A DNA stretch of 57,735 nt from a virus (Duplodnaviria; Caudoviricetes), in IMG/VR virus record IMGVR_UViG_3300028837_001890, positions 1-57,735 of that record, one strand, 5' to 3'. Shown here one piece after another: positions 2,941 to 39,284 of this stretch (positions within the stretch are counted from its first letter, which is position 1; every line of letters starts with the position of its first letter). A program made the translations under genes and the position numbers. The notes under the pieces were generated by a model. The model was not told the DNA's origin. It was given only the letters and a program-made list of their open reading frames with translations, and searched no databases.

Positions 2941-3828
2941 TTAAGTATTTAGTGTTTTCTCACATAATTTATGTATTTCTAATAAAATCTGTTTTTCATT
3001 AATAGCAGATACATTTATAGCTTTTTCTAATGAGCCATAATGCATTTCTAAACATTGTAATAATAACCGTTTTATTGCTTTTTCGTCAGGATAATGTTGT
3101 AGAGAACTCGAAGTATAAAGTGATTCTAATTCTCGCTCCTTAGTAGTAAAATAATCCTCTATTTGTTGTAATGTCCATTCTCCTGATCTAATCGCTTTTA
3201 ATTGTTCTTTATTACGCATTAAATTTAGATCGCCCTCAATTAAAATTTGCTCAACTTCATTTAATAATCTAACTAGATGATAAGCATATTTAACATCGTA
3301 ACCATATTTTTTAACTGTTTTAAGTCTATCGCCAACAGGATTCTTTATCTTTATTTTATGTAGTTGAGAATAAGCATAACCTTTAAACTTAAACCAAGCC
3401 CCTTTATGTAAAAATAATTTTCGATTCTCTCTAAGTAAATTACCTATTTGAGTAATATGTATTATAAAATTTTGCTCTACGAATAATGAATCCACAATAT
3501 TCGGATTATTTTTCATTAATAAATCAAAGTATTTAACGATGGAATAAATACAGAAGTCATAACTTTTATTACAACTATCATCAAAAACGTGATGTCTTTC
3601 CCACTGATGAAATCTAGGCGTCTGAATTCCAAAATCTATTATTTCCCCAGCTAAATGAGGAAAAATAACATGTTTCTGAGGAATACAGATACCATAAATA
3701 TCATTATCTGAATTTTCATTCTCACATCCGTAACAGAGAGAACCCATTCGCGTTAAATAAATAGTATTCTCTATAAGCCATGAGGGTGGCGATATAAGTT
3801 TTTTATCTCTTAATTTTTTTAATAACAT
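2941..3828 (-). CDS. Pol-beta superfamily nucleotidyltransferase (phage NrdC.11/YcgL-like)
   Basis: GSxxYG...SDxDxxG motif; NPN; GYAYSQL; GYDVKYAYHLVRLL. Confidence 0.85.
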   Translation of the reverse strand: MLLKKLRDKKLISPPSWLIENTIYLTRMGSLCYGCENENSDNDIYGICIPQKHVIFPHLAGEIIDFGIQTPRFHQWERHHVFDDSCNKSYDFCIYSIVKYFDLLMKNNPNIVDSLFVEQNFIIHITQIGNLLRENRKLFLHKGAWFKFKGYAYSQLHKIKIKNPVGDRLKTVKKYGYDVKYAYHLVRLLNEVEQILIEGDLNLMRNKEQLKAIRSGEWTLQQIEDYFTTKERELESLYTSSSLQHYPDEKAIKRLLLQCLEMHYGSLEKAINVSAINEKQILLEIHKLCEKTLNT

Positions 3829-5216: not shown

Positions 5217-5744
5217 TTAATTATTTTTTTGTTTATCTAATAAAAGACGCATTTTTTCAATTGCTTTATCTTTTATCTGACCAACTCGTTGACGACTACC
5301 TTTTTTATTATAATCAGATATCTCGTCTAATGTATAACATTGTTTATATGGTTTTAAACCATAATACATTTTAATTACTTCTTGTTGCTCTTCACTTAAC
5401 TCATTTAAAACATTTAAAACTTTCTTTTTAGAATTTAACTCTATTTCTTTTTTTATAACTTTCACACTCTTATCAATTAAATCAATCCATAATGAACTAT
5501 AACCTAAAGTCTGACGTAAAAAATATTTCTCGTCTATAATTAAATTATTATTTGTGTTTTTTTTAAAAAAATTATTTATCCCCTTAACCGGATAATACAT
5601 TTTTCTTCCTACCATTTTAGAAGGAATTCTTATACGTCCTGTATCTCCACGCCAATTAGATAATGTAGATAAACTTATATTTAAAACTTTTATTACTTCT
5701 TTAGAATTATAATATTCTTTACCATCACTCAAAACTACAGTCAT
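5217..5744 (-). CDS. excisionase-like HTH fused to sigma70 region-4 domain
   Basis: N-term EVIKVLNISLSTLSNWR; C-term LSEEQQEVIKMYYGL...TLDEIS...SRQRVGQIKDKAIEKMR. Confidence 0.75.
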   Translation of the reverse strand: MTVVLSDGKEYYNSKEVIKVLNISLSTLSNWRGDTGRIRIPSKMVGRKMYYPVKGINNFFKKNTNNNLIIDEKYFLRQTLGYSSLWIDLIDKSVKVIKKEIELNSKKKVLNVLNELSEEQQEVIKMYYGLKPYKQCYTLDEISDYNKKGSRQRVGQIKDKAIEKMRLLLDKQKNN

Positions 5745-6131: not shown

Positions 6132-6473
6132 ATGCATATTAATGAACTTAATGAAATTCGTATAAAAGAATTCGATAAACAAGAATTTTATTCTTATGAC
6201 GAAGCAAATACTGTAATTTTAAAATTTCCATTGATAGAATTAGCTGTTAAACCAAATCTTTCTTTAGCCGCTAAAGGCTTATTATTAGAAATAATAATCC
6301 GTAATACTAAAATATTTAAACCTTATGAGTTTATTAGGTCTTCTATAACTCATAATGAATTAAAATGTCTTTTTAAAGAATTAGCTTTAAACAGCTATAT
6401 CGAACCTGTATTCTATAAATCGTCAAATGATATAACAAAAAAAGGATGGCGATTAATTAAAGTTATCGACTAA
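6132..6473 (+). CDS. possible wHTH protein
   Basis: NLSLAAKGLL...FKELALNSYI resembles replication-initiator-type HTH N-termini. Confidence 0.5.
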   Translation: MHINELNEIRIKEFDKQEFYSYDEANTVILKFPLIELAVKPNLSLAAKGLLLEIIIRNTKIFKPYEFIRSSITHNELKCLFKELALNSYIEPVFYKSSNDITKKGWRLIKVID

Positions 6474-7204
6474 TTTAAAGTAATAAATTTTATTGATAAT
6501 AACTTAGTTATTAATTGTTTATCTATTTTTGTAAATACATTAAATATATTTAAAATATTTATTTTATTTTTAATAGGCTCAAAACCATAATAATCATCAA
6601 AATGCTCTACTTGTAACTCTAAAATTTTCTTAACATATAGATATCTTAAATAACTTAAACTAAATGTATCTTTTTTCAATCTTAATTTTAAGTTTGAGAA
6701 TTTATTTTTAAAAACCTCAAACTCTTTTTTACCCCCCCAATTAGTTAAAAAAAGTTTAAATTTATTATCAATATCTTTATCATTATAAAATACCTCGTGA
6801 AAATCAATTTTTACTTTATTTACTATTTTACGAAGTTTAACTTTAGCTGTAATAAAAACATTTTTTAATTTTTTATAAAATAATTGCGTTATAACTAGCT
6901 TTAAAATTTTATCGTAATCTTCTTTATTTAGTTTAGAGTTATTTAATTTAAATTGTAATTGTTTATCTATTAAAATAAGCTCGCTATTATAAACTATATA
7001 TAAAATTGACGGTGAAAATAAATTAAATATTTTATTTATTTTACTTGACGCCTCATCTTTATTTAGATTTTTTTTATTTTTATTGTAATCCTCATTTATT
7101 TTTATCAGCGCATCAATTGAAAAATACTTAATCATAAAATCTTCAAATGTAGTACATGTAGCACAAAGTCTTTTTATTACTTTAATTTCTTCGTTATTAA
7201 TCAT
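6470..7204 (-). CDS. hypothetical protein
   Basis: 244-aa ORF. Confidence 0.65.
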   Translation of the reverse strand: MINNEEIKVIKRLCATCTTFEDFMIKYFSIDALIKINEDYNKNKKNLNKDEASSKINKIFNLFSPSILYIVYNSELILIDKQLQFKLNNSKLNKEDYDKILKLVITQLFYKKLKNVFITAKVKLRKIVNKVKIDFHEVFYNDKDIDNKFKLFLTNWGGKKEFEVFKNKFSNLKLRLKKDTFSLSYLRYLYVKKILELQVEHFDDYYGFEPIKNKINILNIFNVFTKIDKQLITKLLSIKFITLN

Positions 7205-7638: not shown

Positions 7639-7667
7639 ATTATATAATTAATAAAGTTAATTGTCAA
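7639..7667 (-). promoter_or_regulatory. sigma70 promoter
   Basis: TTGACA-17-TATAAT. Confidence 0.85.
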
Positions 7668-7978
7668 GTTTGGTTGGTGTGGTTATTTTATAAGCTTTAA
7701 TAATCCGCATTAAATAAATTCCACATTAAATAAATTTTCTGATTGCTGATACCTAATTTTTAATTTCTCTAACCACTCATCTAAATTTTTATTTGACATT
7801 TCATCTAAATGCTCTATTTTATAGTATATTTTTGGTGATTGTATGATTCATATAACCAAAAAGTGGTTTTTCCCCTTTTTTATTCCACATAATGGGTTTA
7901 GTACATTTTGGACATTTAACGTCTAATAATTTTATAATTTTCATCTTTCCTCCTCTATTGCCTGTAATACACATTATT

Positions 7979-8194
7979 TTATAAGCTTAAATATATTTTT
8001 TTGACTTCATTTTGCCAATTTTTATTAGGGCATGGAGGACAATTTTTTTTCATATATGTGTATGCTTCTTCAGCAGTAGAAAATAAGGTTATTCTTTTTA
8101 AAACTTCTATAGGTGTAAAAGAATTTTTTTCTTCTAAATAATATATTTCTTTGTCAATTTGACTAACACTCACAATAGTAAATTTTATAATCAT
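7979..8194 (-). CDS. hypothetical protein
   Basis: AGGAGG RBS; bounded by repeat sites. Confidence 0.65.
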   Translation of the reverse strand: MIIKFTIVSVSQIDKEIYYLEEKNSFTPIEVLKRITLFSTAEEAYTYMKKNCPPCPNKNWQNEVKKIYLSL

Positions 8195-8222
8195 CTATCC
8201 TCCTTACCGTCGGTTATACATG

Positions 8223-8483
8223 TTATTTATCTTTTTTATCTGCTAAAAATAATTCTTTCCAGCATTCTGCTATATCGTTTTCGCCATTACATTTATCGCA
8301 TTTTTTACCTCCACTTAATCCTAAATTAGCAGGACAATCCTGAGAGGAGTTTGATAAAAATTCACACGCCTCATCTAAGGCTTTTTTATAATTTTTCACA
8401 TTCATTGTTTCATTCATTTCATTTTCATATTTTTCTTTTTTAATTTGATTTTGAGCAAATCGTTTTAATTCTTCTTTCGTCAT
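8223..8483 (-). CDS. small Cys-rich protein
   Basis: C...CP...CDKC...CW; stop codon is part of a repeat site. Confidence 0.65.
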   Translation of the reverse strand: MTKEELKRFAQNQIKKEKYENEMNETMNVKNYKKALDEACEFLSNSSQDCPANLGLSGGKKCDKCNGENDIAECWKELFLADKKDK

Positions 8484-8523
8484 CTTTCTCCTCTGTTAAG
8501 TTAAAGTTATTTCTTTATCTACA

Positions 8524-9450
8524 TTATTTTTTTATATTACTCCATATTTTTTCAACCATTAATGGAATTACTGCATTTCCAAGTTGTCTGTATCCTTGAA
8601 CTCCATCGCTTACAAAATGATTTTTAGGAAAACCCATTAATTTTTTGTATTCATTGATTGATAATTTTCTAATTTTATTATTAATAAGATACAATCCTGT
8701 TTTAGCTCCCATACCACCTCCATTTGCAGATAATGTAACTGCGTGTACTTTTGGGCTATATATTCTTTCGCCTTGACCGCCTTTGTTTATAATGCCAAGC
8801 CTTATTAATTTTAAACTATACTCTATATTTTTTGAGTCCTTAGTATATTTTATATCTGTCCTATTTATAAATAAGTTTTTATCAATCTCTTTATCTAAAA
8901 CATTCTCTAAATATATTTTTATATATGTTTCTTTCGGCCTGTTAGATGATAAATTTAAGTCTTTTCTTAAACAAACAAAATAAACTCTTTTTCTAGCTTG
9001 AGGAATACCAAAAAAAGAAGCGTTGAGAACATGCATAAAGACATTATAACCTATTTCATTTAATTTATTTTCTATTGTTTTAATTACACCGCCATTGTTA
9101 ATGCTAAGTATATTTTTTACATTTTCTAAGAGTAATATGGACGGTTGATGATACTCTGCTATTCTGATTATTTCATAAAAAAGCCGTCCTCTATTATCTA
9201 AAATACCTTTTCTTTTTCCTGATATGCTAAAAGACTGACATGGAAAACCCGCACATAATACATCGTGCTTTGGAATTTTTTTAGCTGGTATTTCTGATAT
9301 ATCCCCCTTTGGCATATCTTTAAAATTTTTAAAATAAACTTTTTGTACATGCTTATCTATATCACTGGAAAAAACACATTGTAACCCTTGTTTTTCCAGT
9401 GCTAATCGGAAACCACCTATCCCACAAAATAAATCTATAAATTTATTCAT
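8524..9450 (-). CDS. DNA cytosine-C5 methyltransferase, M.HhaI-like
   Basis: FxGxGG, GFPCQ, ENV, QxRxR, GNA motifs; target-recognition region KGGQGERIYS...TLSANGGG..AKTG closely resembles M.HhaI (GCGC). Confidence 0.95.
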   Translation of the reverse strand: MNKFIDLFCGIGGFRLALEKQGLQCVFSSDIDKHVQKVYFKNFKDMPKGDISEIPAKKIPKHDVLCAGFPCQSFSISGKRKGILDNRGRLFYEIIRIAEYHQPSILLLENVKNILSINNGGVIKTIENKLNEIGYNVFMHVLNASFFGIPQARKRVYFVCLRKDLNLSSNRPKETYIKIYLENVLDKEIDKNLFINRTDIKYTKDSKNIEYSLKLIRLGIINKGGQGERIYSPKVHAVTLSANGGGMGAKTGLYLINNKIRKLSINEYKKLMGFPKNHFVSDGVQGYRQLGNAVIPLMVEKIWSNIKK

Positions 9451-9495
9451 TTATCAATCATCTCTCCTTCTATTTCCAGTAATACACATTATTTT

Positions 9496-9636
9496 TTAAA
9501 TTCCACATAAAATATATTTATCTTTCTTTTCTTCAATCCACCACCATTTAAGATTTAATCGTTTTTTAAAAGCATTAATAAAAAGTAAAAGCTTATCAAT
9601 ATCAATAAACTCTTTTTTAAAAACTTGTTTGTTCAT
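9496..9636 (-). CDS. 46-aa hypothetical protein (not in ORF track)
   Basis: hand-translated MNKQVFKKEF...YILCGI*, GAGG RBS, between two repeat sites. Confidence 0.55.
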   Translation of the reverse strand: MNKQVFKKEFIDIDKLLLFINAFKKRLNLKWWWIEEKKDKYILCGI

Positions 9637-9705
9637 CTTATTTATCCTCTGTTAAGTTATCCGGATTTTCCGGAATATTGATTGTCGGTAATACGCATTA
9701 TTTTT

Positions 9706-9876
9706 TTAATTTATTTGGATTGAATATGCTATTAATCCTAATATTAAAAAAAGCATAATTTCTATAAATGAGCATACTTTTTGATTAAATAAATTATTAA
9801 TAATATTAATAAAAGGAATCATTAAAGCACACGAAATCAACCAACAAAAAATTAAATCTTTTTCTTTATTATTCAT
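9706..9876 (-). CDS. 56-aa two-TM membrane protein (not in ORF track)
   Basis: hand-translated MNNKEKDLIFCWLISCALMIPFI...IMLFLILGLIAYSIQIN*, GAGG RBS. Confidence 0.6.
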   Translation of the reverse strand: MNNKEKDLIFCWLISCALMIPFINIINNLFNQKVCSFIEIMLFLILGLIAYSIQIN

Positions 9877-9891
9877 TTTCTTTATCCTCTG

Positions 9892-10101
9892 TTAAGTTTC
9901 TTCTACTATTTTACCAATAATGAATTGCTCTAATATTCGCTCACCATTGATCACAAAAATCTGTGAATAATTATCCAGGGGAAAGTATTTATTATTCTCA
10001 TTCACATATTTTATAATTTTATGAACAGTTCCAGTTAGGATTTCATTGTTCATTAAACTATTTTTATATAAAACTTTATCTCCTGTTTTTATATCTTTCA
10101 C
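9892..10101 (-). CDS. small SH3/KOW-like protein
   Basis: IKTGDKVLY; GAGGAG RBS. Confidence 0.6.
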   Translation of the reverse strand: MKDIKTGDKVLYKNSLMNNEILTGTVHKIIKYVNENNKYFPLDNYSQIFVINGERILEQFIIGKIVEET

Positions 10102-10208
10102 GATTATTTCTCCTCTGTTAATATAAATATTATTTTTTCATTTAATAATTTTCTATAAGCACGTCTTGAATAGTTTTTTGTAGGTAAATTCACAATCGTC
10201 GCCTCTTG

Positions 10209-10544
10209 TTAAACATTACTGGAAATTCTTTTTTGTCGACCAAATGGGTAATCCATTTTTTCTATTATTTTTTGTTTAACTTCTTTTTCTGTTTTTGCGT
10301 AAAAATCTTTATAGGTTAACTGCTGCCCATAATGATCTATAAATATAATTTTTATTGACTTTGTTTGTTCATTATGACGAGAAGATTTTGTTATCTCTAT
10401 AGTAATATGCGCTATAGAATAACTTTGAATGTAGAGTGTTTTTTTATTAAAAAAATAAAGTTCATCGCCGATCTTATAAGGCAATTGGTCTAAAAATTCA
10501 TATAATGACTTATATTTTTTAGATGTTGCAAACTGTATTAGCAT
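10209..10544 (-). CDS. small SH3/KOW-like protein
   Basis: LPYKIGDELYF; ends in a repeat site. Confidence 0.6.
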   Translation of the reverse strand: MLIQFATSKKYKSLYEFLDQLPYKIGDELYFFNKKTLYIQSYSIAHITIEITKSSRHNEQTKSIKIIFIDHYGQQLTYKDFYAKTEKEVKQKIIEKMDYPFGRQKRISSNV

Positions 10545-10571
10545 AATCCTCGCCTCTCTCGTTAAAGCACA

Positions 10572-10853
10572 TTACTGGAAGTTAAATCTTCCAAATTTTT
10601 CATAAAGTAATAATTGTAAAGCCCAGTGTTGTTTTATATAAAACATTCGTTGTTCTTCATATTTCTCGATAGAAATTTTTAACTTAATACGCTTATCTTC
10701 TAAATTACCAATTTTTTTACAAATATTATTAATATTTTTAACAATAAAATTTTCAGGTAAATTATATATTGCGGGTAAATATTTTTCTCCCCATATTTCT
10801 TTTATTTCTTCGGCACTTGTTTTAAATCTCATATTTATTTCTTCCTGATACAC
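10572..10853 (-). CDS. hypothetical protein
   Basis: ends NFQ* where the stop is the TAA of a repeat site; true start may be the later Met. Confidence 0.55.
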   Translation of the reverse strand: MYQEEINMRFKTSAEEIKEIWGEKYLPAIYNLPENFIVKNINNICKKIGNLEDKRIKLKISIEKYEEQRMFYIKQHWALQLLLYEKFGRFNFQ

Positions 10854-10874
10854 ATTACTGGAAATTAATTTGGT

Positions 10875-11528
10875 TTAATTTTGATTCTCATCACCCACAA
10901 TCATATTGATAATTAAATCATTAATATGAATACCTTTTTTTCTCTCTTCATCTGAGATTTCACATTCATCTAGATCACCACTAACTCCTGTCAGATCACC
11001 TTTAATCCCTGTCAGATCACCTGTAACTCCTGTTAGATCACCTTTAATCCATGACAGAACACCTTTAATCCCTGTCAGATCACCTGTAACCCATGACAGA
11101 TGACCACTAACTCCTGTCAGATCACCTGTAACTCCTGTCAGATCACCTTTAATCCATGACAGATCACCTGTAACTCCTGTTAGATCACCTGTAATCCATG
11201 ACAGATGACCTTTAATCCCTGTCAGATCACCTTTAATCCCTGTCAGATCACCTGTAACTCCTGACAGATGACCACTAACTCCTGTCAGATCACCTGTAAC
11301 TCCTGTCAGATCACCTGTAACTCCTGTCAGATCACCTGTAACTCCTGACAGATCACCTTTAATCCATGACAGATGACCACTAACTCCTGTCAGATCACCT
11401 GTAACTCCTGACAGATCACCTGTAACTCCTGACAGATGACCACTAACTCCTGACAAATCACCTGTAATTTTGTCATGCATTCCTATTATATATTTTTGTT
11501 TAATTAACATCTTCTTCATAATCATCAC
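10875..11528 (-). CDS. heptapeptide-repeat protein
   Basis: over 20 tandem 7-aa units (V/I)(T/S/K)G(D/H)L(T/S)(G/W); 21-nt DNA period. Confidence 0.8.
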   Translation of the reverse strand: MMIMKKMLIKQKYIIGMHDKITGDLSGVSGHLSGVTGDLSGVTGDLTGVSGHLSWIKGDLSGVTGDLTGVTGDLTGVTGDLTGVSGHLSGVTGDLTGIKGDLTGIKGHLSWITGDLTGVTGDLSWIKGDLTGVTGDLTGVSGHLSWVTGDLTGIKGVLSWIKGDLTGVTGDLTGIKGDLTGVSGDLDECEISDEERKKGIHINDLIINMIVGDENQN

Positions 11529-11554
11529 CTCTCGTTAAAGCACGTTACTAGAAA

Positions 11555-11836
11555 TTATCGCATTTCTTCTGGGGACAATGAAATAATTTGTCTGATTAAA
11601 AACTCTTTTGCTTCATTTACACGATTAAATAAATATGGTTCTTGAATTTTTTTCTCAGAAACGCATGTATGTGATTTAATTGTATAAAAAATTCTTTGTT
11701 CTTCCCCATACTCATTCAATTCAATATTTACAATTTTCCCTGTTTTTAACTTTAATGGGGTATATGGATCATTACATGAATGATGTTCCGTCCATATTAA
11801 AAAATATACCTGCTGGCCTAAATTAAATTTCGGCAT
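11555..11836 (-). CDS. small SH3/KOW-like protein
   Basis: PKFNLGQQVYF; AGGAG RBS. Confidence 0.65.
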   Translation of the reverse strand: MPKFNLGQQVYFLIWTEHHSCNDPYTPLKLKTGKIVNIELNEYGEEQRIFYTIKSHTCVSEKKIQEPYLFNRVNEAKEFLIRQIISLSPEEMR

Positions 11837-11866
11837 TTCTTATCTCCTAAGTTAAGTTAATACACA

Positions 11867-12154
11867 TTACTGGAAATTATTAGTTTTTATTAATTGCTCT
11901 ACAGCTTTGTCTATAAGATAGATAAATTTTGCAATTAGGATGTCGCCGAAATAATTTTTATTATTTAGATCGCAACATTTATGAAATATTATAGATAAAT
12001 CCTTCTCACTTAAATCACGATTTGTTTTTTTTCTTATAGAATCTGCAATAATATTAGCTAAACAGTGTGTATCAGCCCATAAATCATAACCACCAGCTTC
12101 TTTATCTAAATAAAAATCATATGGATTTTTTTTATCTTCACTCACAATCATCAC
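11867..12154 (-). CDS. hypothetical protein
   Basis: ends NFQ* inside a repeat site. Confidence 0.6.
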   Translation of the reverse strand: MMIVSEDKKNPYDFYLDKEAGGYDLWADTHCLANIIADSIRKKTNRDLSEKDLSIIFHKCCDLNNKNYFGDILIAKFIYLIDKAVEQLIKTNNFQ

Positions 12155-12296
12155 CTATCGTTAAATGTTGTTGGAAATTATTTTTTATTTTTTTATTATT
12201 AAAATATTTTTCATTCATCAATTTATAAAAATTTATTTCCATTTGTAAAGCTGATTGAAGATATTTTTTTATTTGCTTTTCATTCATAATCATATC

Positions 12297-12494
12297 CTAA
12301 CAATAAAATTTGTGGTTACAACATGGACATTCTTTTTCAGCTTTTTCTGTCAATAATCTAATACTGGCAATTAAAAATTCATCTCTTTTTTCTTGACTAT
12401 TGATAATTAAACTTTGATCAAGATGCATATATAATAGTTTATGTTTAACTCTAATTTCATCATCTGTTAATTTTTTAACTTTCATAATCATCAC
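12297..12494 (-). CDS. small protein with C-terminal Cys cluster
   Basis: CPCCNHKFYC; GAGG RBS within repeat site. Confidence 0.55.
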   Translation of the reverse strand: MMIMKVKKLTDDEIRVKHKLLYMHLDQSLIINSQEKRDEFLIASIRLLTEKAEKECPCCNHKFYC

Positions 12495-12770
12495 CTCTCG
12501 TTAATAGACATTCCTGGAAGTTATTCTTTTTTTAAAATAAAAAACCGCCAATTGAAAAACTATTTTGACCTTCTATAATTAATAATTTAGGTAAAACTGA
12601 ATCTTGAATTTCTAATTTAGAGTCATTAGACACTATAATTTTATTGTGTTTAGCGCATAAATCTATTAACTCATTTATAAACAGAATATGGTTAGCATTT
12701 AAAGACTCTGATTCTTCTTCGTCAATATAAAAAAATTATTCATGATTTACTCTCTCTATTTAATAAGCAA

Positions 12771-12799
12771 AGTATACTACAATTAAAATAGAATGTCAA
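12771..12799 (-). promoter_or_regulatory. sigma70 promoter heading the repeat-delimited gene array
   Basis: TTGACA-17-TATACT. Confidence 0.75.
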
Positions 12800-13167
12800 G
12801 TGTTTTTATTTTTTATTATATAACCCAAACCATTACATCGAAAACATTGTTTATATTCATTTTTAGGTTTATCGCCAAATACCTTTGTATACTCTTTATC
12901 ACCAAACACTTTTGCATATAATGAGTATTCCCAGCCTATTACTTTTTGACCTTTACATAAATCACATTCATTAATAATTTCATCTAAAGAATATACTTTT
13001 TTCTCAATGTTATTTTCTTTATTTATCTGAAAAATATGTAATTCCCATGCGTCACGAATTGAAAAGTTGCTATGTTTTATACAACGCATTACTTCTTTTA
13101 ATGATTCAAATTTTCCTACTAACTCTGTTTTAATAGGATGAAAATAAATTTTAAATAACTCAATCAT
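12796..13167 (-). CDS. protein with DnaJ-type Zn-finger motifs
   Basis: CDLCKG and CFRCNGLG. Confidence 0.6.
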   Translation of the reverse strand: MIELFKIYFHPIKTELVGKFESLKEVMRCIKHSNFSIRDAWELHIFQINKENNIEKKVYSLDEIINECDLCKGQKVIGWEYSLYAKVFGDKEYTKVFGDKPKNEYKQCFRCNGLGYIIKNKNT

Positions 13168-13730
13168 TATTTTAATTTTTTTAAACAGTTTATAATTTTA
13201 TAATTTTCCTCTTCTTCAGCTACTTCTAAAGCTACTTCTAAGGACATTTTACCTTCTTTTATCAGTATTTCTAACATCTTAAAATCATTATTTTCAACAG
13301 GAATCGCTGATGTTTCTAAACCACGATCTGATAAATCTACACGTTTATCTTTTAATAAAAATCTTACTACATCATACCGCTTCGCTCCCACAGCATCATG
13401 TAAAGCCATATTGGTATAATAAGCAGGATCAACATTTGGATCATTAATTAATTCTTTAACTACTTTTAAATCACCTCTAACACACGCTGTATTAAACTTA
13501 TTCTGCATATCACTAGTTGTTTCATACTCATAATCCGTTTCTTCCTGAATCGTTGGTGTATAAGTTTTAAGATATGCTTGCTGTATAGCGAGTATATGCT
13601 CAGAAACTATATTTAAATTAAAAATTTTTTTATCTTCTTCTACTGATAAATATTCATTTAATAACTTTATACATTTTTTAACTAAAAAATCATCTTCAAA
13701 TTTGAACTCATCATCTACTTGTACTTTCAT
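13167..13730 (-). CDS. ankyrin-repeat protein
   Basis: ACVRGDLKVVKELI, ALHDAVGAKRYDVVRFLLKDKRVD. Confidence 0.85.
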   Translation of the reverse strand: MKVQVDDEFKFEDDFLVKKCIKLLNEYLSVEEDKKIFNLNIVSEHILAIQQAYLKTYTPTIQEETDYEYETTSDMQNKFNTACVRGDLKVVKELINDPNVDPAYYTNMALHDAVGAKRYDVVRFLLKDKRVDLSDRGLETSAIPVENNDFKMLEILIKEGKMSLEVALEVAEEEENYKIINCLKKLK

Positions 13731-13757: not shown

Positions 13758-14531
13758 CTATAAAGAACGTCCAACTACATTAACTAAATTATTAAGTGTT
13801 TGTTTTGGTTTCTTAGGTGTCTTAAAAAATAATGATTTAAATTTATTTTTTATTCCACGCAGAGCATTAGTTATATGCTGCCAAAATGTCTTTGATTTTT
13901 TATTAGTATTTGAAACTTCAGCAATATTTTTTTTATTTTTATTAACAAACACATCTAATTTATCAACGATTTCTACAGAGCTTTCTTTATAAACAAATTG
14001 AGCTTTTAAATCTTTTACCAGTTTTAACTCTTTACTTATTTTGTATAACTCTTTTACTTTTTCAAAATTATTTTTTGTTATAAGCTTTTCATATTTTTTA
14101 TACTGTTTATATTTTTCATTACATTTGGAACTTTCTTTCTTCTTTAAATAATGTTTTTTAAAGTTTTTATTTTCATAAACTAACTCATAATTTGAACATA
14201 TTAACAGTGTAATCTTTTTATTTCTTTGCAAATCATCATAAATAAAATCATTTATTTTTTCTATATATCGTAGAAAAGTCTCATAATCATAATAACTATT
14301 AATATTAAAATAATTATTAATAAATCTAGAAATACGAAAGTTATTAAAAAATGACTTCTTAATTAAATTATTAAGTTTATAATTTAAATATTCTTCACGT
14401 TTATCTACTACTTCAATTAATTTAATAAGTTTATAACCTATAAATTTTTTTAACTGTTCAGCATTAAAATTATTGGTTTTAACGCTATCGTATAAATTTT
14501 TCAACTCTAATAAATTCATATCCCCAAACAT
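13758..14531 (-). CDS. basic hypothetical protein
   Basis: 257-aa ORF, AGGAGG RBS. Confidence 0.7.
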   Translation of the reverse strand: MFGDMNLLELKNLYDSVKTNNFNAEQLKKFIGYKLIKLIEVVDKREEYLNYKLNNLIKKSFFNNFRISRFINNYFNINSYYDYETFLRYIEKINDFIYDDLQRNKKITLLICSNYELVYENKNFKKHYLKKKESSKCNEKYKQYKKYEKLITKNNFEKVKELYKISKELKLVKDLKAQFVYKESSVEIVDKLDVFVNKNKKNIAEVSNTNKKSKTFWQHITNALRGIKNKFKSLFFKTPKKPKQTLNNLVNVVGRSL

Positions 14532-14585: not shown

Positions 14586-15359
14586 TTAAGAAAAATATTT
14601 TTTCCAAATAATACTATCTTTAAACTCTATATCATTCGACCATTCTGTAATAACAGTTCTTTTTCCATCTTTATCAAATATTATCCAATGATGACAATAT
14701 CTTTTATTATTTGATTTATCAATTTTAACTACTAATTTTTGTGATTCTTCAAATTCTGAAGAAACTTTTTCTAAAGCTGATATATTTTGCGATCTATCAC
14801 AATGTTTAATAAATAATGCTTTAACACAAAATACATTAATCATTTTAATCAATTCTTGTTGCACTTCATTTAATCTTCTTTTTTGTGCCAACATTTTTAT
14901 TATATAATCTGTTTCTTTTATATATTTACCTATAAATTCTGAAGGAGCTTTTTCTAAATCTGATATATTTTGTAATCTGTCACAAAGTTTAATAGTTAAT
15001 GCTTTATCGCTCATATTTATCATTTTTTTTGCTAAATAAACATCTTTATTATCTAAATACACAGTATTAAGCTCTTCTTTGTTTATTGTGAGTTCTATTA
15101 CTAATTGACTAACGTCCTTTCCGAAAGCTCCCTCTATTAAAAAATTCCCTAACCCTTTATTTTTGTAACAATCCTCAATAACATCATGCAATAATGCAAC
15201 GCATAAACTATCTTCGTCTTCGCAATATTTAGTAGCTAGCTCATATACTTCTTTAACATGTCCATCGAAATAGAGTTCATTTGTAAACTTTCTACGTTGA
15301 TCTTTGTGGGCTTCTTTAGCAAAATCATAAGCTTGTGATACTTTAGCTGTTTTATTCAT
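14586..15359 (-). CDS. HD-domain (p)ppGpp hydrolase-like protein (Mesh1/SpoT HD type)
   Basis: AYDFAKEAHKDQRRK...H...ALLHDVIED...IKLCDRLQN. Confidence 0.88.
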   Translation of the reverse strand: MNKTAKVSQAYDFAKEAHKDQRRKFTNELYFDGHVKEVYELATKYCEDEDSLCVALLHDVIEDCYKNKGLGNFLIEGAFGKDVSQLVIELTINKEELNTVYLDNKDVYLAKKMINMSDKALTIKLCDRLQNISDLEKAPSEFIGKYIKETDYIIKMLAQKRRLNEVQQELIKMINVFCVKALFIKHCDRSQNISALEKVSSEFEESQKLVVKIDKSNNKRYCHHWIIFDKDGKRTVITEWSNDIEFKDSIIWKKYFS

Positions 15360-16870: not shown

Positions 16871-17500
16871 TTATTTAAAATCAACAGCTTTAATTTTAGT
16901 AATAATTCTATTGCCAACTCTATCTTTTAATTCATATAAAGGCCTTAAAACTAATCCTTCAGCTTTACAATTACCTACTTTAGAATCAAAACCTTTTTTA
17001 ACTAATTCTATAGCTTCAGATAATGTACCTTGCCCAACAAATGGAACATATTTTATTCCTAATCTTTCTGCAAATGATTCTAAATTATCCTTCGACTGCC
17101 AATTATAACCAATAAGACAATCGAATAAGATAAAATCTACGGAGTCTTTTAAATATAATTTACCTACTTTTTGAACTTTATTGCCGTAACCTTCCCCAAA
17201 AAAAATAATTTCTTTTTTAAGAGAAGCATAATCAAAAGACTCTTTTAATTTATCTAAAGTAAATATGTCTTGCAATCTGGCGAATAACGAAGTTGGAATT
17301 TGTGCTTTTTCTGTTCTACCTCCAAATCTTACATGTTCACCATCGAAATATACTCTAATATTTGTCCCATCTATTTTTTCTTGAAATGACCACTGACAAT
17401 CTTGTAATAATTCAAATTCTTCACATGAAAATTTATTATTAAATTTATGAGTCTTTTCATTTCTTTTATATAAAGAATTAATTTTATGATATGTTTTCAT
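16871..17500 (-). CDS. RNA ligase (Rnl2-like nucleotidyltransferase domain)
   Basis: EKIDGTN (motif I), FGEGYG, FILFD, EGLVLRP, TKIK. Confidence 0.9.
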   Translation of the reverse strand: MKTYHKINSLYKRNEKTHKFNNKFSCEEFELLQDCQWSFQEKIDGTNIRVYFDGEHVRFGGRTEKAQIPTSLFARLQDIFTLDKLKESFDYASLKKEIIFFGEGYGNKVQKVGKLYLKDSVDFILFDCLIGYNWQSKDNLESFAERLGIKYVPFVGQGTLSEAIELVKKGFDSKVGNCKAEGLVLRPLYELKDRVGNRIITKIKAVDFK

Positions 17501-19218: not shown

Positions 19219-20070
19219 TTACTTTCCTCTATACTTAATTAATTCCTCTATACTAAGTGTCTCTTTAACACGTTTATCTTTTAATAATATTTTAACTGTC
19301 TTCATATGATTAAAATATACAGCCCATTTGATAGCTTGATTATTATTGGCTGTAGGATTAACACTTTCCTGACTACATAAAAACTTAACAACCTCAGTAT
19401 GCCCATTATGCGCCGCCCAACGAATCGCATAATTATTATTACTAGTTAAATCATTTAAAGGATTAGACATTAAATATTTAATTATCTCTAACCTCCCTTT
19501 TGCCGCAAAATCACAAATAAATTTATTATTACTTTCCTGAAAATTAATTATCTTATTATTAATTAAATATTTAATTGTTTCTATATGTGATATTTTTATA
19601 TTTAGTGTATACGTTAACCACTGTAATAAAACATTTAAAGTTATATTGTTATTTTGAAATAACTGTTTAATTTCATCTACAGTATTATTTTTAATAACAT
19701 CTGCAAGCCCATCTATATTTTTATGACGCACACAATTTTCAAAAAACACTTCGGAATCTGAATCAGGATCATACTCACTCTCTAACTCTTTAATAGTCTT
19801 ATCTGTATACTCTTTCTTAAAATCTATATTAAAAGCGTTAATTATAGACGGCTCAATAGATAACCCATCTGCTAAATCACCTGTTTTATAAATATATAAA
19901 TAAAGGTCTTTTAATAATTTTTTATCAAAAGAAGAAAGAAATTTTAAACTTTCTTCCAAGGTGAGAAATACACTTTGTATGTTTCTATTATAATATGAAC
20001 AGGTTTCCCAACCGTCATTACATTCTAGCTCCTCTATTTTTTCTTCTTTTACTATATATACATTACTCAT
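19219..20070 (-). CDS. ankyrin-repeat protein
   Basis: NNNYAIRWAAHNGHTEVVKFL, NNNQAIKWAVYFNHMKTVKILLKDKRV. Confidence 0.9.
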   Translation of the reverse strand: MSNVYIVKEEKIEELECNDGWETCSYYNRNIQSVFLTLEESLKFLSSFDKKLLKDLYLYIYKTGDLADGLSIEPSIINAFNIDFKKEYTDKTIKELESEYDPDSDSEVFFENCVRHKNIDGLADVIKNNTVDEIKQLFQNNNITLNVLLQWLTYTLNIKISHIETIKYLINNKIINFQESNNKFICDFAAKGRLEIIKYLMSNPLNDLTSNNNYAIRWAAHNGHTEVVKFLCSQESVNPTANNNQAIKWAVYFNHMKTVKILLKDKRVKETLSIEELIKYRGK

Positions 20071-20491: not shown

Positions 20492-20570
20492 TTATCCACA
20501 AGTTATTAACAGGCTGTGGATAACCTGTGGATAACTTTTTATTAATAACTTGTGGGTAACCTGTGGATAA
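20492..20570. promoter_or_regulatory. DnaA-box cluster
   Basis: TTATCCACA at 20492; TGTGGATAA at 20515, 20526, 20562; near-matches at 20503 and 20551. Confidence 0.85.
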
Positions 20571-20992: not shown

Positions 20993-21262
20993 TCATTTTT
21001 CCTCCTGATTTTTATGTTTATATTGACGTGTAGAAGTACACCTTTGGGCAGTTTCCTTTAGCCATTTTTTAACATCTTCAACATCATATCTCACATGATG
21101 ACCGATTTTGTAAAACGGGATAACGCCTTTACCTCCAGTCCATCTCTGGCGTTGCAAAAAACTGACTGACTTACGAATTAAAAGCGCAACTTCTTTCTCA
21201 GAAAGAAAACCAAATCTTCCTGTACCACAAGCATCTAAAAATTCTTCCTGTTTAGTTTTCAT
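20993..21262 (-). CDS. excisionase/AlpA-like HTH protein
   Basis: LSEKEVALLIRKSVSFLQRQRWTG..IPFYKIGHHVRYDVEDVKKWL. Confidence 0.85.
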   Translation of the reverse strand: MKTKQEEFLDACGTGRFGFLSEKEVALLIRKSVSFLQRQRWTGGKGVIPFYKIGHHVRYDVEDVKKWLKETAQRCTSTRQYKHKNQEEK

Positions 21263-21641: not shown

Positions 21642-22552
21642 GTATCAAACGCAACCCAGTTTATATCAAATGCGAGGTATTTTAAACCAAAAAAATTAAT
21701 ACGGCGTAATCAACTAACTTACTGATATACTTAATTAAATTATAAGCTTAAAAAAATAAGGTACAATTTTGGTGACCATCAAGTATCTGATAAATTTACT
21801 AAATTAAAGGTTGTATCAAATGCGACATGTGACTTTAAATGCGTGTTTTGGCGTAATTACTTGATTATATTAAGGAAATCAAGGTGTCGTTGTAAACCAT
21901 GGTATCAAATGCAAGTTTACAATAACGCATTTGATACCATGTAACTCTCTGATTTAATTAAGAAAATCAACCTTTTCTTAAGGTTCGTATCAAACGCAAA
22001 AGTTTTTAAAGAGAGAGAAAAAACAAAACAAAAAAATTAAGTGTTTAAAAGTTGGGCGTCAAACTCTCATTTTTTGAAAAAGATGAGCTTTGTAAAAACT
22101 TTTGCGTTTGATACCGTCATTTTTTACTATGCTAATATATATATTATATATATATATATCAATGGGATATACTCGTATCAAATGCGGGTACATTTACCAG
22201 AAATCGATTTTGCATTTGATACGAACCTTAAGAAAAGGTTGATTTTCTTAATTAAATCAATGGGCATTTCACGAAAGTGCGTTTGATACGGAATGCCGGA
22301 AACGAAGTTTTCCCGAAAACTATTGGCTCTAGGAGCGAAAACTTTTTTTCACTATTCTGCGAAGACGCCAACGGCAGTACTTGCCGAGATTCGATTCTTC
22401 TCGTTTTATATACAGAGCGGGTTTCCGAGTTGCTTAGAAAGTGAACAAATCGAAAAAAGACTAATTAAATCAAAATGTTATTTTTTGTACACAAGATTTA
22501 ACCAGTACAAAATTCTTCCAAACTGTATAAAAAAAATACCGGTATTTGATAC
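21642..22552. repeat. dispersed GTATCAAAYGC motifs with nested inverted repeats
   Basis: about 11 copies in both orientations; 52-bp IR 21950-22001/22208-22259. Confidence 0.85.
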
Positions 22553-22624
22553 GAAACACCCTTATTTCCAGTAATGCTTTTTCATTTTTTTGCTTTTTTT
22601 TTACTTTTTTAAAAACACTATACT

Positions 22625-22827
22625 TTTCTATACACTTATGATATGTTTGTTTAATTTTTACAGGGGGTTACAAGGATTGTTCAAAAAAGCATCAAAAATA
22701 TTTCTATACAACTTTTGTATGTTTGTTTAATTTTTACAAAGGGTTATTAAAATTTCTTTTAAAAAGTGTTACAGCGGCAAAAAAATATTTCTATACACTT
22801 ATGATATGTTTGTTTAATTTTTACAGG
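22625..22827. repeat. three ~40-bp spaced direct repeats
   Basis: TTTCTATACACTTATGATATGTTTGTTTAATTTTTACAGG at 22625 and 22788, variant at 22701. Confidence 0.85.
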
Positions 22828-22884
22828 TACTTGTGGAGTTTTGTATATTTCTTATACTAGATTTTAAAAAAGAATGAAAAAATC

Positions 22885-22954
22885 TTGACAGGCGTAAAAC
22901 AATTTGGTATAATCAAACCTCATTTAACACTTCGTGTTAAATGAGGTTTGATTA
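22885..22954 (+). promoter_or_regulatory. consensus promoter overlapping a perfect 21-bp hairpin
   Basis: TTGACA-17-TATAAT; stem 22910-22930/22934-22954. Confidence 0.8.
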
Positions 22955-26248: not shown

Positions 26249-26293
26249 TCTTATTTCTCCAGTGTTAGTTAATAAAAGCACATTACAACTACA

Positions 26294-26322
26294 GTTATAT
26301 ATTAGTTAAAATCACTTGTCAA
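26294..26322 (-). promoter_or_regulatory. sigma70 promoter in duplicated promoter+RBS cassette
   Basis: TTGACA-17-TATAAC; identical copy at 26867-26895. Confidence 0.8.
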
Positions 26323-26353
26323 GCTTTTTCGTACGATTTTTAAAATATTTTTA

Positions 26354-26821: not shown

Positions 26822-27034
26822 TCTCATTTCTCCAGTGTTAGTTAATAAAAGCACATTACAACTACAGTTATATATTAGTTAAAATCACTTGTCAAGCATT
26901 CTTTTACGATTGCATATTTTTTAAGCAAGTTAGTTTTACACCTATATAACATATCGTGTGCGCGTGAATATCGCAATTAAAGTCATTTGTCAAGTCTTTT
27001 CGTATTATTTAAACTTTCTTTAGGGTGTCAGTTA

Positions 27035-27203: not shown

Positions 27204-27500
27204 GTAAACTAAGATATATTGTTTTAAGTTTACTATTCATTTGTAAACTAATCTTTCTATTCGTAAACTAATCTTTCTATTCGTAAACTAATCTTTCTAT
27301 TCGTAAACTAATCTTTCTATTCTTAGGTTTACTTAGCAGCCCTTTCTATTCGTAAACTAATCTTTCTATTCTTAGGTTTACTTAGCAGCCCTTTCTATTC
27401 GTAAACTAATCTTTCTATTCTTAGGTTTACTTAGCATATTCTTAGGTTTACTTAGCAGCCCTTTCTATTCGTAAACTAAGAAATAATATTTTAAGTTTAC
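27204..27500. repeat. composite tandem repeat with GTAAAC/GTTTAC cores
   Basis: GTAAACTAATCTTTCTATTC units interleaved with TTAGGTTTACTTAGCAGCCCTTTCTATTC units. Confidence 0.9.
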
Positions 27501-28047
27501 TGCGTCTGCGTTGTTTGCTAGGTTTTCTGTAATTAATTTCTGTACAAGGAATGCTTTTTATTAATCGGTTTACAGTTGTTTAAAATCTGTGCAGATACTG
27601 ACGCACGCAAAAAATTCTACGCTACAACGCATCAACGTGTTCAACTTAGGAACTCCTAAATAATATCTATTCATATTTTAATTTTTAGTAAAGTTTCTAG
27701 GTGTTACGATTAGTTTATATCATAGTAGGTATATAGGCAGGCTGTGAAACTGATTATGCACTGTAAGGGCTACAACTAGGGGTACACATTGCACACCAGG
27801 TTTTTTAGTTGATTGTATAATATTTATACAGTAAAAATTTTTCTAGAAATTTTTTCTAAGCAATTGTATGTATTTTGTACATTAAGAAAGCGCCGTTATC
27901 TTTTTAATGTAGTTTTTCATCATTAATATAAAAATCAGGGGATTCCTTTTTTAAAACTATTTATTTTATTAAATTTACAGTTAATAGTTAACAGTTTAGC
28001 ATCACTGGTATATAATATATTTTTTTAGTTAATAGAAGGTAAAGAAT

Positions 28048-37692: not shown

Positions 37693-37980
37693 TTATATTA
37701 TAAAACCGTGTTTTTTCATTTTATTTCTTACAGTAACTTTACCTAAACCGAGTATTTTAGCTACTTTTGTTTGATTTCCAGCGCTTATATATATAACAGC
37801 TTTTAATAAAGGTTTTTCTATTTCATTTATTAATTTATCGTATAAATTTGTGATTGTAGTAGGATCGTCAATTTTTTCAAAAAAGCATTGAAGAGATTCT
37901 TTAACAGCTGTAGTTAAAGGTATATTATGAATATTACGGAATTTTAAGTTTTCAGTTATGGTTTTTTGTGTATTATTCAT
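37693..37980 (-). CDS. fis: Fis-like nucleoid protein
   Basis: PLTTAVKESL..FF...NLYDKLINEIEKPLL...GNQTKVAKILG aligns with Fis. Confidence 0.88.
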   Translation of the reverse strand: MNNTQKTITENLKFRNIHNIPLTTAVKESLQCFFEKIDDPTTITNLYDKLINEIEKPLLKAVIYISAGNQTKVAKILGLGKVTVRNKMKKHGFII

Positions 37981-38687: not shown

Positions 38688-39284
38688 TTAACTTAAATGA
38701 TATGCGACTTCTAAATTAATTAAATCATTTATACTATCTAATTCAGTTATTTCTTTGTTTAAAGATAAATGAGTATAACGTCCTCTAATAGTTACATTAT
38801 CAAGATTAAGTTGCACTCCAGCACCATAGTTTAAACAAACTGTTCTAAAATGAGAAATATTTACACTATTAGTATAGTTATATTCTTGGTCTATTGTTAT
38901 ATAACTAATACCACCATTAGCGAAAATATCTAAATAAGAAGCGATAGACATAATCATATAAGCATCATAGTAAGCATGATATGTGTTTTTATTTTTAATT
39001 ATTGTATTACTATTTTTCCACTCTGATTTTGCTAGTTGTTGAATTCCTAATTCATGTGCGAAGTTTTTATTTAAACGCTGTCCTGCAAATAAATTATAGC
39101 CCATATATTCTTTATCTAGTTTAAAACTCATATTATTTTCTGAGTTTTTTTGAATAGCGTTATAATTAACACCTGCTCCTATATAATTACCAGTTGGTTT
39201 CTTAGTAAGTGGATGGGCATAAGCTATAGAGCTTAAAACAATAGCACCACAGGCTGTTAAAGCGCACATTAGTTTTTTATTCAT
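38688..39284 (-). CDS. outer-membrane beta-barrel (OmpA-TM/Ail-like)
   Basis: signal peptide ending AYA; YIGAGV, GQRLNKNFAHELG, NYGAGVQL, C-terminal LEVAYH. Confidence 0.85.
   Translation of the reverse strand: MNKKLMCALTACGAIVLSSIAYAHPLTKKPTGNYIGAGVNYNAIQKNSENNMSFKLDKEYMGYNLFAGQRLNKNFAHELGIQQLAKSEWKNSNTIIKNKNTYHAYYDAYMIMSIASYLDIFANGGISYITIDQEYNYTNSVNISHFRTVCLNYGAGVQLNLDNVTIRGRYTHLSLNKEITELDSINDLINLEVAYHLS

Follow-up and report, generated by a model that had tools for sequence, protein, structure and literature searches.

The virus record IMGVR_UViG_3300028837_001890 of IMG/VR, a tailed phage (Duplodnaviria; Caudoviricetes), carries on its minus strand an early operon of small genes in which one short motif recurs at 12 of the 16 gene junctions. 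The window analysed here is the entire record, 57,735 bases, linear and rated 100% complete. The motif combines a quasi-palindromic 12-bp core, TAAT-GTGT-ATTA, which always points the same way, with an 11-bp arm that stands on one side of it only. Class A comprises the seven promoter-proximal junctions, in which the arm, ATTTCCAGTAA, precedes a spacer within the core on the 5' side; in the distal junctions (class B) its reverse complement lies 3' of that spacer. The same junctions hold stop codons for the upstream gene and a Shine-Dalgarno (SD) sequence for the downstream one. The reading that we favour, with a probability of roughly 0.35, is that these are portable junction modules that carry half of an operator for a DNA-binding protein and double as crossover points.

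Distribution and polarity of the junction motif

The only strong minus-strand promoters of the sigma-70 type are those at 12799-12771 and 7667-7639, and between them there is neither a comparable minus-strand promoter nor a minus-strand terminator. The stretch from 12,799 to about 7,700 is therefore taken to be one transcription unit. An earlier reading made from the letters only (the sequence-only reading) had likewise seen a promoter at 12771 and none within the array. The roughly 17 genes of the unit encode proteins of 30-308 amino acids, all on the minus strand, and they are mostly ORFans and mutually unrelated. When 16 array proteins were compared all against all by BLASTP, nothing better than E 0.004 over 27 residues was obtained. 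The genes are thus not paralogues, and their conserved junctions are not a by-product of gene duplication.

Every site that the sequence-only reading had named was found where it had been placed, on the minus strand, including the versions near 12154 and 10202 (A2 and A7), whose spacers are 3 bp shorter. Two weaker class-B copies (B3 and B4), the faint one at 7701-7712 and the possible stray copy on the plus strand are additions of the present analysis. The earlier picture of an arm-TAA-N6-TTA-arm structure at most junctions holds for the number of junctions occupied, with only g1/g2, g7b/g8, g8/g9 and g14/g15 being free of the motif, but not for the anatomy: none of the 12 sites has two arms, and only by combining class A with class B is the 11-6-11 palindrome obtained.

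At tight settings the motif is far above chance and, one possible stray copy apart, it is confined to the operon. With up to two mismatches, TTCCAGTAATGTG has seven matches against 1.26 expected, six of them at array junctions, and none of 100 shuffles reaches seven; with up to one mismatch, AATAATGTGTATTAC has three matches against 0.02 expected. The signal is lost at looser settings, both with up to three mismatches (23 matches against 17.9 expected) and when the 12-nt core is searched alone with up to two (31 against 25.3). A position weight matrix (PWM) built from five class-A sites, which score 21.4-25.2 bits by construction, gave 17.6 bits for A7, on which it had not been trained; A2 is too degenerate for the matrix and was recognised by alignment only. 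The best score elsewhere in the genome was 14.6 bits, and the best among 1,270,126 strand-bases of other loci, a background from which three loci chosen by the pattern itself had been excluded, was 14.7. The profile scan of the whole genome that the sequence-only reading had proposed thus separates these six class-A sites from the rest of the genome. The possible stray copy at 22562-22582 contains the exact 12-mer ATTTCCAGTAAT and scores 14.6, the background maximum.

The class-A consensus is TAAyTTCCAGTAATGTGnnTTAAC, followed by the SD, and that of class B is TwAAAAAATAA-TGTGTA-TTACnGGmAAT. Compared in fixed register, the class-B arm agrees with the inverted class-A arm at all 11 positions in B2, at nine in B5, eight in B1, five in B4 and four in B3. 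Since a match of at least 8 of 11 occurs at only 388 of about 115,450 positions genome-wide, the dyad relation is real for three of the five class-B sites, and these are the three (at 9472, 9681 and 7957) in which the arm had been described earlier as lying on the other side. All ten sites with a 6-bp spacer share the sense of that spacer, both strands having been searched. Class B is therefore not class A turned round; the arm alone switches side. Such fixed polarity points to a directional process, be it transcription, translation or recombination between direct repeats.

Neither a shared nor a stable RNA fold was found in the 12 junctions, where Z-scores range from -2.9 to +1.4; the only outliers are B4 and B1, and the hairpin of B1 lies outside the motif. 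That the arm can stand on either side of the core, together with the absence of a fold, points to duplex DNA as what is recognised, not single-stranded RNA. Promoters and terminators were likewise rejected by the scan for them, no sigma-70-like promoter falling at the sites among the promoter-like matches.

The phage does encode a 175-aa protein with sigma-70 region 4 (5217-5744), and each SD is closely preceded by the motif, which is about 22 bp long. Each site might accordingly be a promoter for this sigma-like protein, giving every small gene a separate middle-phase transcript. This is very improbable. Most copies leave too little space for a -10 element, a start site and a leader with the SD, a class-A core being separated from the SD by only 0-5 nt; no other operon, those of the structural genes included, has the motif upstream; and, besides being missing from the promoter-like matches, the sites carry the arm on different sides in the two classes. 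The consensus sites of other known elements were compared by eye, namely the T4 middle-promoter box, the CodY box, cre, the Spo0A box, the IHF site, the integron core site and the IS608 target, and none fitted across the copies. The complement of the core resembles, with mismatches, a DnaA box, and this idea was dropped because the phage has perfect TTATCCACA boxes, which we take to be DnaA boxes, elsewhere (20492-20570).

Table 1. Features of the early operon and of the motif. Arm agreement is with the inverted class-A arm.
Feature	Position	Strand	Content	Basis
Early operon	7713..12799	-	promoter and about 17 small genes (g0-g15, including g7b)	ORFs, promoter scan
Array promoter	12771..12799	-	sigma-70-type, TTGACA-17-TATACT, drives the array; no motif copy	11/12
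A1	12494..12521	-	junction g0/g1: ACTTCCAGGAA TGTCTA TTAACGAGAGG	11-6-11 register
A2	12154..12178	-	junction g2/g3: degenerate, spacer 3 bp shorter, inner TAA lost	alignment
A3	11850..11877	-	junction g3/g4: ATTTCCAGTAA TGTGTA TTAACTTAACT; g3 ends NFQ on the inner TAA	
A4	11528..11555	-	junction g4/g5: ATTTCTAGTAA CGTGCT TTAACGAGAGG; g4 stop is the TAA directly 5' of the arm	
A5	10838..10865	-	junction g5/g6: ATTTCCAGTAA TGTGTA TCAGG..., then a different SD	
A6	10555..10582	-	junction g6/g7: ACTTCCAGTAA TGTGCT TTAACGAGAGA; g6 ends NFQ	
A7	10202..10226	-	junction g7/g7b: spacer 3 bp shorter; g7 ends ISSNV, stop in TTAAC, other frame	
B1	9681..9708	-	junction g9/g10: TAAAAAAATAA TGCGTA TTACCGACAAT	arm 8/11
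B2	9472..9499	-	junction g10/g11: TTAAAAAATAA TGTGTA TTACTGGAAAT; exact reverse complement of the class-A arm	arm 11/11
B3	8507..8534	-	junction g11/g12, weak: TAAAAAAATAA TGTAGA TAAAGAAATAA	arm 4/11
B4	8206..8233	-	junction g12/g13, weak: AAGATAAATAA CATGTA TAACCGACGGT	arm 5/11
B5	7957..7984	-	junction g13/g14: TTATAAAATAA TGTGTA TTACAGGCAAT	arm 9/11
Faint core-like copy	7701..7712	-	TAATGCGGATTA, where the last small ORF stops, immediately ahead of the next promoter	
Possible stray class-A copy	22562..22582	+	TATTTCCAGTAATGCTTTTTC, in a repeat-rich stretch; no SD after it	
SD module type 1	12483..12504	-	TTAACGAGAGGTGATGATTATG; further copies 12143-12164, 11517-11538, 10542-10565, 10191-10212	
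SD module type 2	9641..9655	-	TTAACAGAGGAKAAA; further copies 11841-11855, 10107-10121, 9881-9895, 8485-8499	
Next promoter	7639..7667	-	sigma-70-type; marks the end of the array's transcription unit	12/12
g11	8524..9450	-	C5 cytosine methyltransferase, between B2 and B3; sole array gene with a family assignment	Pfam
g5	10875..11519	-	repeat protein, about 23.6 tandem copies of a 21-nt unit (GDLTGVT/GHLSWIK heptads)	repeat analysis

Stops, Shine-Dalgarno modules and a possible half-operator

The class-A unit contains three TAA triplets, present in 6, 5 and 6 of the seven copies. These lie 10 nt apart and so provide one stop in each reading frame. The first of them stops g4, the second g3 and g6, which are the two open reading frames (ORFs) that the sequence-only reading had seen ending in NFQ, and the third g7, while g2 reads through the degenerate A2 and ends in ...NNFQQHLTIGDDCE. 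The five genes upstream of class-B sites all stop at one or other of the two TAAs in the A-rich left side. Because the class-A unit encodes different C-terminal tails in different frames (NFQ in g3 and g6, ISSNV in g7 and NNFQQHLTIGDDCE in g2), the constraint is on the nucleotides and not on the protein. Conservation of nucleotides across three frames and between unrelated genes suggests either selection or a recent spread through the junctions.

On its right-hand side class A enters the SD after 0-5 nt, and this is the ribosome-binding site into which the right arm had been seen to run. Three types of SD module recur; those of types 1 and 2 lie on the minus strand of the early operon and end at or near start codons. 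Type 1 is found with class A and alone, with a partial copy at 12285-12299 (junction g1/g2) that has neither arm nor core; type 2 occurs with A3, B1 and B3 and alone; and the third, AATAGAGGAGG-like, is found at B2 and B5. The SD context of the phage's other operons differs (AAATAGAGG). Among A1, A2/A4, A6 and A7, the two arm variants (ACTTCC and ATTTCC) and the two SD variants (GGTGATGATT and GGCGAsGATT) occur in all four combinations, which, for these five sites, would fit exchange within the unit.

Could the sites act in the message? A role at the mRNA level, as a translational operator for each cistron, an endonuclease site or a TAATG termination-reinitiation relay with short ORFs, is unlikely, although it stands ahead of the other alternatives to the half-operator. 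A phage RNA-binding repressor shuts off many early messages in T4. Here almost every cistron has a site next to its SD, always in the same sense, as gene-by-gene translational control would need, and the three-frame stops and extended SD (AGGTGAT) fit a translational junction. TAATG is present in the core of 10 of the 12 sites, and by our own reading of the sequences the ATG opens, at eight of the 12, a mini-ORF of 5-13 codons that ends 2-20 nt before the next start or overlaps it. On the other hand, mini-ORFs are short in any AT-rich sequence, so that their shortness is no evidence; ATG is replaced by ACG in A4 and missing from A2. Core and start are separated by a variable distance of about 21 to 55 nt, no RNA structure is conserved, and no SD follows the stray copy at 22562. 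Moreover, the reverse-complemented arm of B2, B5 and B1 is a different RNA, which a single-strand binder would not recognise.

From the sites as they stand we infer protein binding, a regulatory effect and a role in shuffling. Each junction would be assembled from three modules: an A-rich tract with TAA stops; the 12-bp core of fixed polarity with a single outer arm, ATTTCCAG on the 5' side in the seven promoter-proximal junctions and its reverse complement on the 3' side in the distal ones; and one of the three stereotyped SD modules. Arm and core together would form a half-operator for a sequence-specific protein that binds double-stranded DNA, either a phage helix-turn-helix (HTH) protein or a host factor. 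Once bound, the protein would serve at each junction as a roadblock or a shut-off, on the pattern of the stoperators or extended start-associated sequences (ESAS) of mycobacteriophages. The repeated junctions may in addition have served as short homologies at which unrelated ORFan genes were swapped, as with the promoter early stem-loops (PeSLs) of T4-type phages.

A number of points weigh against the half-operator. The candidates for the binding protein are two HTH_17 proteins (20993-21262 and 5217-5744) and a Fis-type HTH_8 protein (37693-37980), and these HTH genes have no link to the sites. The operon's own promoter, the first place at which a repressor should act, has no copy, and a dimeric regulator normally needs both half-sites, which none of the 12 sites has. 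Four of the 16 junctions do without the motif altogether, and the poor arms of B3 and B4 and the degenerate state of A2 indicate that the sites are not all needed. The fixed polarity, the stops and the SD are equally expected under a role in RNA or translation. The argument from the four arm and SD combinations rests on five sites and could reflect recurrent mutation. Finally, no relatives were found that could bear on purifying selection or shuffling at the motif.

Another possibility is that the sites are functionless relics of one palindromic intergenic element (11-bp stem, 6-nt loop) that was split and copied during gene insertions and growth of the array by unequal crossing-over, the copies being kept for their stops and SD. 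The composite of class A and class B is indeed a perfect hairpin-forming palindrome of which no copy has both arms; A2, B3, B4 and the faint copy at 7701 look like copies in decay; the types of SD module cluster by position in the operon; and the motif is limited to 5 kb of the 57.7-kb genome. However, six class-A arms are near-identical amid unrelated genes, which would take selection or a very recent spread, and the nucleotide sequence of the arm persists even in copies that are translated in different frames. Gene conversion between the junctions would need flanking homology, and there is none. Relics are thus an improbable explanation, ranked below an mRNA-level role.

The half-operator reading draws on systems that have been described elsewhere. 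The closest printed analogues are the start-associated sequences (SAS) and ESAS (PMC3203893) and the PeSLs (PMC2839356), and the array is a member of neither. SAS and ESAS of the Cluster K mycobacteriophages are short, asymmetric repeats that include the SD, lie a few nucleotides before start codons in one orientation and occur only among non-structural, unrelated genes; they sometimes contain the upstream stop, and their function is described as unknown. The ESAS adds imperfect inverted repeats just upstream; since these do not support pairing in RNA, the authors propose that a DNA-binding protein recognises them (PMC3203893). The SD modules of the array are likewise asymmetric, a few nucleotides upstream of starts, in one orientation and in a non-structural operon. 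Their sequence, however, is unrelated to the Cluster K consensus, and host phylum and GC content differ; each site has one arm of a dyad and not a pair of inverted repeats; what is conserved precedes the SD and is associated with stop codons; and the sites are packed into one 5-kb operon, whereas SAS and ESAS are spread over half a genome.

In the T4-type phages, PeSLs are repeated short intergenic cassettes, each a sigma-70 early promoter with a terminator stem-loop, that flank small non-essential ORFans in a plastic early region, and recombination between them shuffles genes and produces mini-circles (PMC2839356). The array shares with them the repeated short junctions between small early ORFan genes, but its junctions have no promoter-like match, no minus-strand terminator and no stem-loop. 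Stoperators of the Cluster A mycobacteriophages are short asymmetric intergenic sites at which a monomeric repressor stops elongating RNA polymerase (PMC3203893, PMC9283540), and they offer a precedent for one-armed sites inside operons. They are, on the other hand, found genome-wide in temperate phages, with an operator at the early promoter, whereas the array sites lie within 7,700-12,521 with none at the promoter 12799-12771, and neither a repressor or lysogeny module was recognised in this phage nor an integrase found.

Why would such junctions matter? Small early ORFans are the most fluid genes of phages, and many have anti-defence and host-takeover functions. Their gain, loss and co-regulation are understood in few groups, chiefly through the PeSLs of T4-type phages and the SAS, ESAS and stoperators of mycobacteriophages. 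The array is a compact new case from an unrelated, uncultivated lineage, in which a half-palindrome of fixed polarity stands at almost every junction, fused to a unit with a stop in every frame and a strong SD. If the sites bind a regulator, they would represent a new form of control, junction by junction, over a whole operon; if they are crossover points, they would constitute a cassette system without a recombinase in a lytic phage. The junction unit is, besides, a natural part, ready for use, with which genes can be joined in any frame.

Recombination and the likeness to dif

The sequence-only reading had likened the sites to the dif and pdif sites of XerC/D. There is some likeness: the composite has 11-6-11 geometry and a TAA-spacer-TTA centre, and the arm, of the AyTTCC...AA type, resembles XerC-side arms (PMC10132070, PMC5357621, PMC3025954), the geometry of dif itself being described in the first two of these. 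For a direct comparison, every 28-mer of the genome in 11-6-11 register was scored against the B. subtilis dif (PMC3025954) and an Acinetobacter pdif (Table 4, PMC10132070), printed references that may not resemble the dif of the phage's host. Against the former, A3 agreed at 19 of 28 nt and A1 at 18, and 23 genome positions reach at least 18. Against the latter, A3 agreed at 21 and the other sites at 14-18; the maxima of 20 shuffles were 19-21, and two of the 20 equalled the 21 of A3. Over the 20 nt of the XerC side (arm, spacer and TTA), A1 and A3 are the top positions of the genome against the same two references, with 16 of 20 each, but the same maximum is reached in 17 of 30 and 10 of 30 shuffles. 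The likeness on the XerC side is thus suggestive only, while over 28 nt it stays at background.

An XerD-type arm is absent, the right-hand arms agreeing with the printed pdif D arm (PMC10132070) at 4-8 of 11 positions; in class A, the SD module stands where that arm would be. Nor do the sites follow the inverse C/D, D/C alternation: whereas Acinetobacter modules are flanked by inverse sites (PMC10132070), here seven class-A sites are followed by five of class B. With no site having two arms, XerC/D dif geometry is not supported for any single site. One-sided Xer sites are possible in principle, since elements that keep the XerC side and the central region while the XerD side diverges are on record, namely the attP of TLC-phi and the site of the gonococcal island (PMC5357621). 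Elements that exploit Xer carry no recombinase themselves, and this phage shows none either, but the phages named among them are vibriophages that integrate at dif, not tailed phages with cassette arrays (PMC5357621). Six-frame searches of the whole genome at E up to 1 gave no match to Phage_integrase (PF00589), Resolvase (PF00239), rve (PF00665) or Y1_Tnp (PF01797), nor to RecT or ERF. By these searches, the phage shows no tyrosine, serine, DDE or HUH recombinase.

In integron arrays, single-ORF cassettes that lack promoters, many of them ORFans, are lined up in one orientation downstream of a shared promoter, and each cassette is followed by a recombination-site repeat that can overlap the 3' end of the ORF. 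The operon has the same general plan of promoterless single-ORF units in one orientation behind one promoter. Unlike an integron it has no integrase, no attI and no attC-type hairpin, and its repeats are much shorter and more alike; no attC-type imperfect hairpin was found at the cassette ends in the 12 junctions, and no inverted partner of the arm was reported. An indirect point comes from the only gene that has homologues elsewhere. The methyltransferase gene g11 has 67% nucleotide identity over 919 nt (9453-8535) to a methyltransferase gene on plasmid lp28-5 of Borreliella burgdorferi N40, and this match is nearly co-extensive with the ORF between B2 and B3. Weaker matches of g11 are found on plasmids of Clostridium, Spiroplasma and Staphylococcus and in one Terrisporobacter phage. 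The proposal that single-gene cassettes were shuffled by a tyrosine recombinase thus survives as far as the architecture and the g11 match are concerned, but not as regards an enzyme of the phage's own.

The sites might nevertheless be used by a tyrosine recombinase, either a host enzyme like Xer or a phage enzyme that has escaped recognition, with a hybrid site of one good and one degenerate arm for each single-gene cassette and crossover in the 6-bp spacer. Inverted 11-bp arms around an asymmetric 6-bp spacer, with the spacers in direct repeat, have the anatomy of a core site, and the outward order of the arms (arm-spacer-x ... x'-spacer-arm') is what would be expected to remain after insertion into the spacer of a two-armed site. 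Together with the architecture, the extent of the g11 match, the precedents for one-sided Xer sites and the first rank of A1 and A3 on the XerC side, this gives the idea some substance. It is still doubtful, falling behind an mRNA-level role and ahead of relics. No recombinase of the four families was found in a genome rated 100% complete, neither a two-armed site nor an XerD-type arm exists, the scores are matched by background and shuffles, and no attC-like fold is seen; class B switches the arm and not the spacer, in runs of seven and five without inverse alternation; and active direct repeats would tend to delete the genes between them.

A more specific version is less probable than any of the foregoing except the phage-sigma promoters. 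In it, a virulent tailed phage without an integrase of its own would possess an integron-like capture array, the host Xer recognising ATTTCCAGTAA and crossing over in TGTGTA. Class A (arm-spacer-x) and class B (x'-spacer-arm') would then be the two hybrids left by insertion into an 11-6-11 site with both arms. Single ORFan genes would enter the array, leave it as circles and pass from phage to phage, and the three-frame stops and built-in SD would make each newly joined gene expressible.

The array genes, the phage and its surroundings

Families were sought for 11 array proteins in Pfam and for 10 in PHROGs, with g2 and g11 searched in Pfam only, g14 in PHROGs only, and g7b, g9, g10 and g15 left out. 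Beyond g11 and the matches of g5, no useful family was found among the proteins scanned. The g5 matches in Pfam are weak, of beta-roll type and driven by its repeats, and the gene looks as if it had grown by tandem amplification. In the first gene there is an apparent frameshift where seven Ts follow one another (12729-12735, within 12729-12743 on the minus strand): the gene starts MNNFF and stops after 14 codons, while the shifted frame continues for about 70 aa (...YIDEEESESLNAN...GGFLF, then stop). This could be a homopolymer sequencing error or programmed slippage.

No end repeats were found in the linear record of 57,735 bases. Its GC content is 21-35% across the window, and a scan with Rfam gave seven tRNAs and no other RNA family. 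Pfam recognised terminase, portal, prohead protease, tape measure and Mu-type baseplate genes and, as accessory genes, two ankyrin proteins, GroES, LemA and an OmpA-like beta-barrel. The sigma-region-4 protein (5217-5744), GroES (29744-30028), the OmpA-like beta-barrel (38688-39284) and the two ankyrin-repeat proteins (13167-13730 and 19219-20070) are unusual accessory proteins to find together in a phage of 58 kb. The presence of the beta-barrel gene suggests that the host has an outer membrane; GroES gives no host signal, its matches being scattered across many phyla at 39-61% identity.

Close relatives are not apparent. The terminase is at most 34% identical to that of any GenBank phage, and three protein queries (13758-14531, 6470-7204 and the terminase) found no relatives in viral_contigs. 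A blastn search of the array against phages and plasmids matched only methyltransferase genes and one repeat protein, and a 14-mer scan for relatives gave single chance matches only. Exact 19-22-mers of class A, class B and SD type 1 had no match in viral_contigs, and 22 AT-rich viral loci, reached through an alignment of HD-domain homologues and having one gene in common with the window, held no copy of the motif. Two 13-mers of the motif did not occur in the literature searched, as far as its text was available, and the 11-mer arm occurred there only in nine unrelated papers. In sequencing runs, 0.80-0.97 of the sampled words of the array were present in four runs from two samples of one marine-sediment study, two of the runs being at the low end with 0.80-0.85; no RNA runs were listed among those carrying array words.

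A class-A 20-mer has three metagenome matches, all without other similarity to the window. They lie on three unrelated contigs (L121:429-448, L122:6288-6307 and L123:217-236) that share the 23-mer ATTCCAGTAATGTGTATTAACCC. As a copy of the phage motif this was rejected as coincidence: the 23-mer encodes a conserved C-terminal peptide, IPVMCINP, of a small protein family.

Several other stretches of the genome deserve mention. Between 20470 and 20800 there are four perfect TTATCCACA boxes, at 20492, 20515, 20526 and 20562, adjoining 6.4 copies of a 16-nt repeat and three copies of a 32-nt repeat, and the region probably serves as an origin of replication dependent on the host's DnaA. Two further stretches, 21900-22900 and 27239-27501, are rich in repeats and apparently non-coding, one with GTATCAAATGC-type and 87-nt repeats and the other with perfect iteron-like arrays of 20 and 49 nt. 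Genes of the RNA-repair type (2941-3828, 14586-15359 and 16871-17500) encode RlaP, a protein like HD/(p)ppGpp hydrolases and an RNA ligase, and the phage's seven tRNA genes include those for Lys, Asn, Asp and Thr; together, the repair genes and the tRNAs may counter anticodon nucleases of the host. Lastly, a promoter with its leader and start (GCTTGACAAGTGATTTTAACTAATATATAACTGTAGTTGTAATGTGCTT) is duplicated exactly before two neighbouring genes on the minus strand, at 26276-26350 and 26849-26923.

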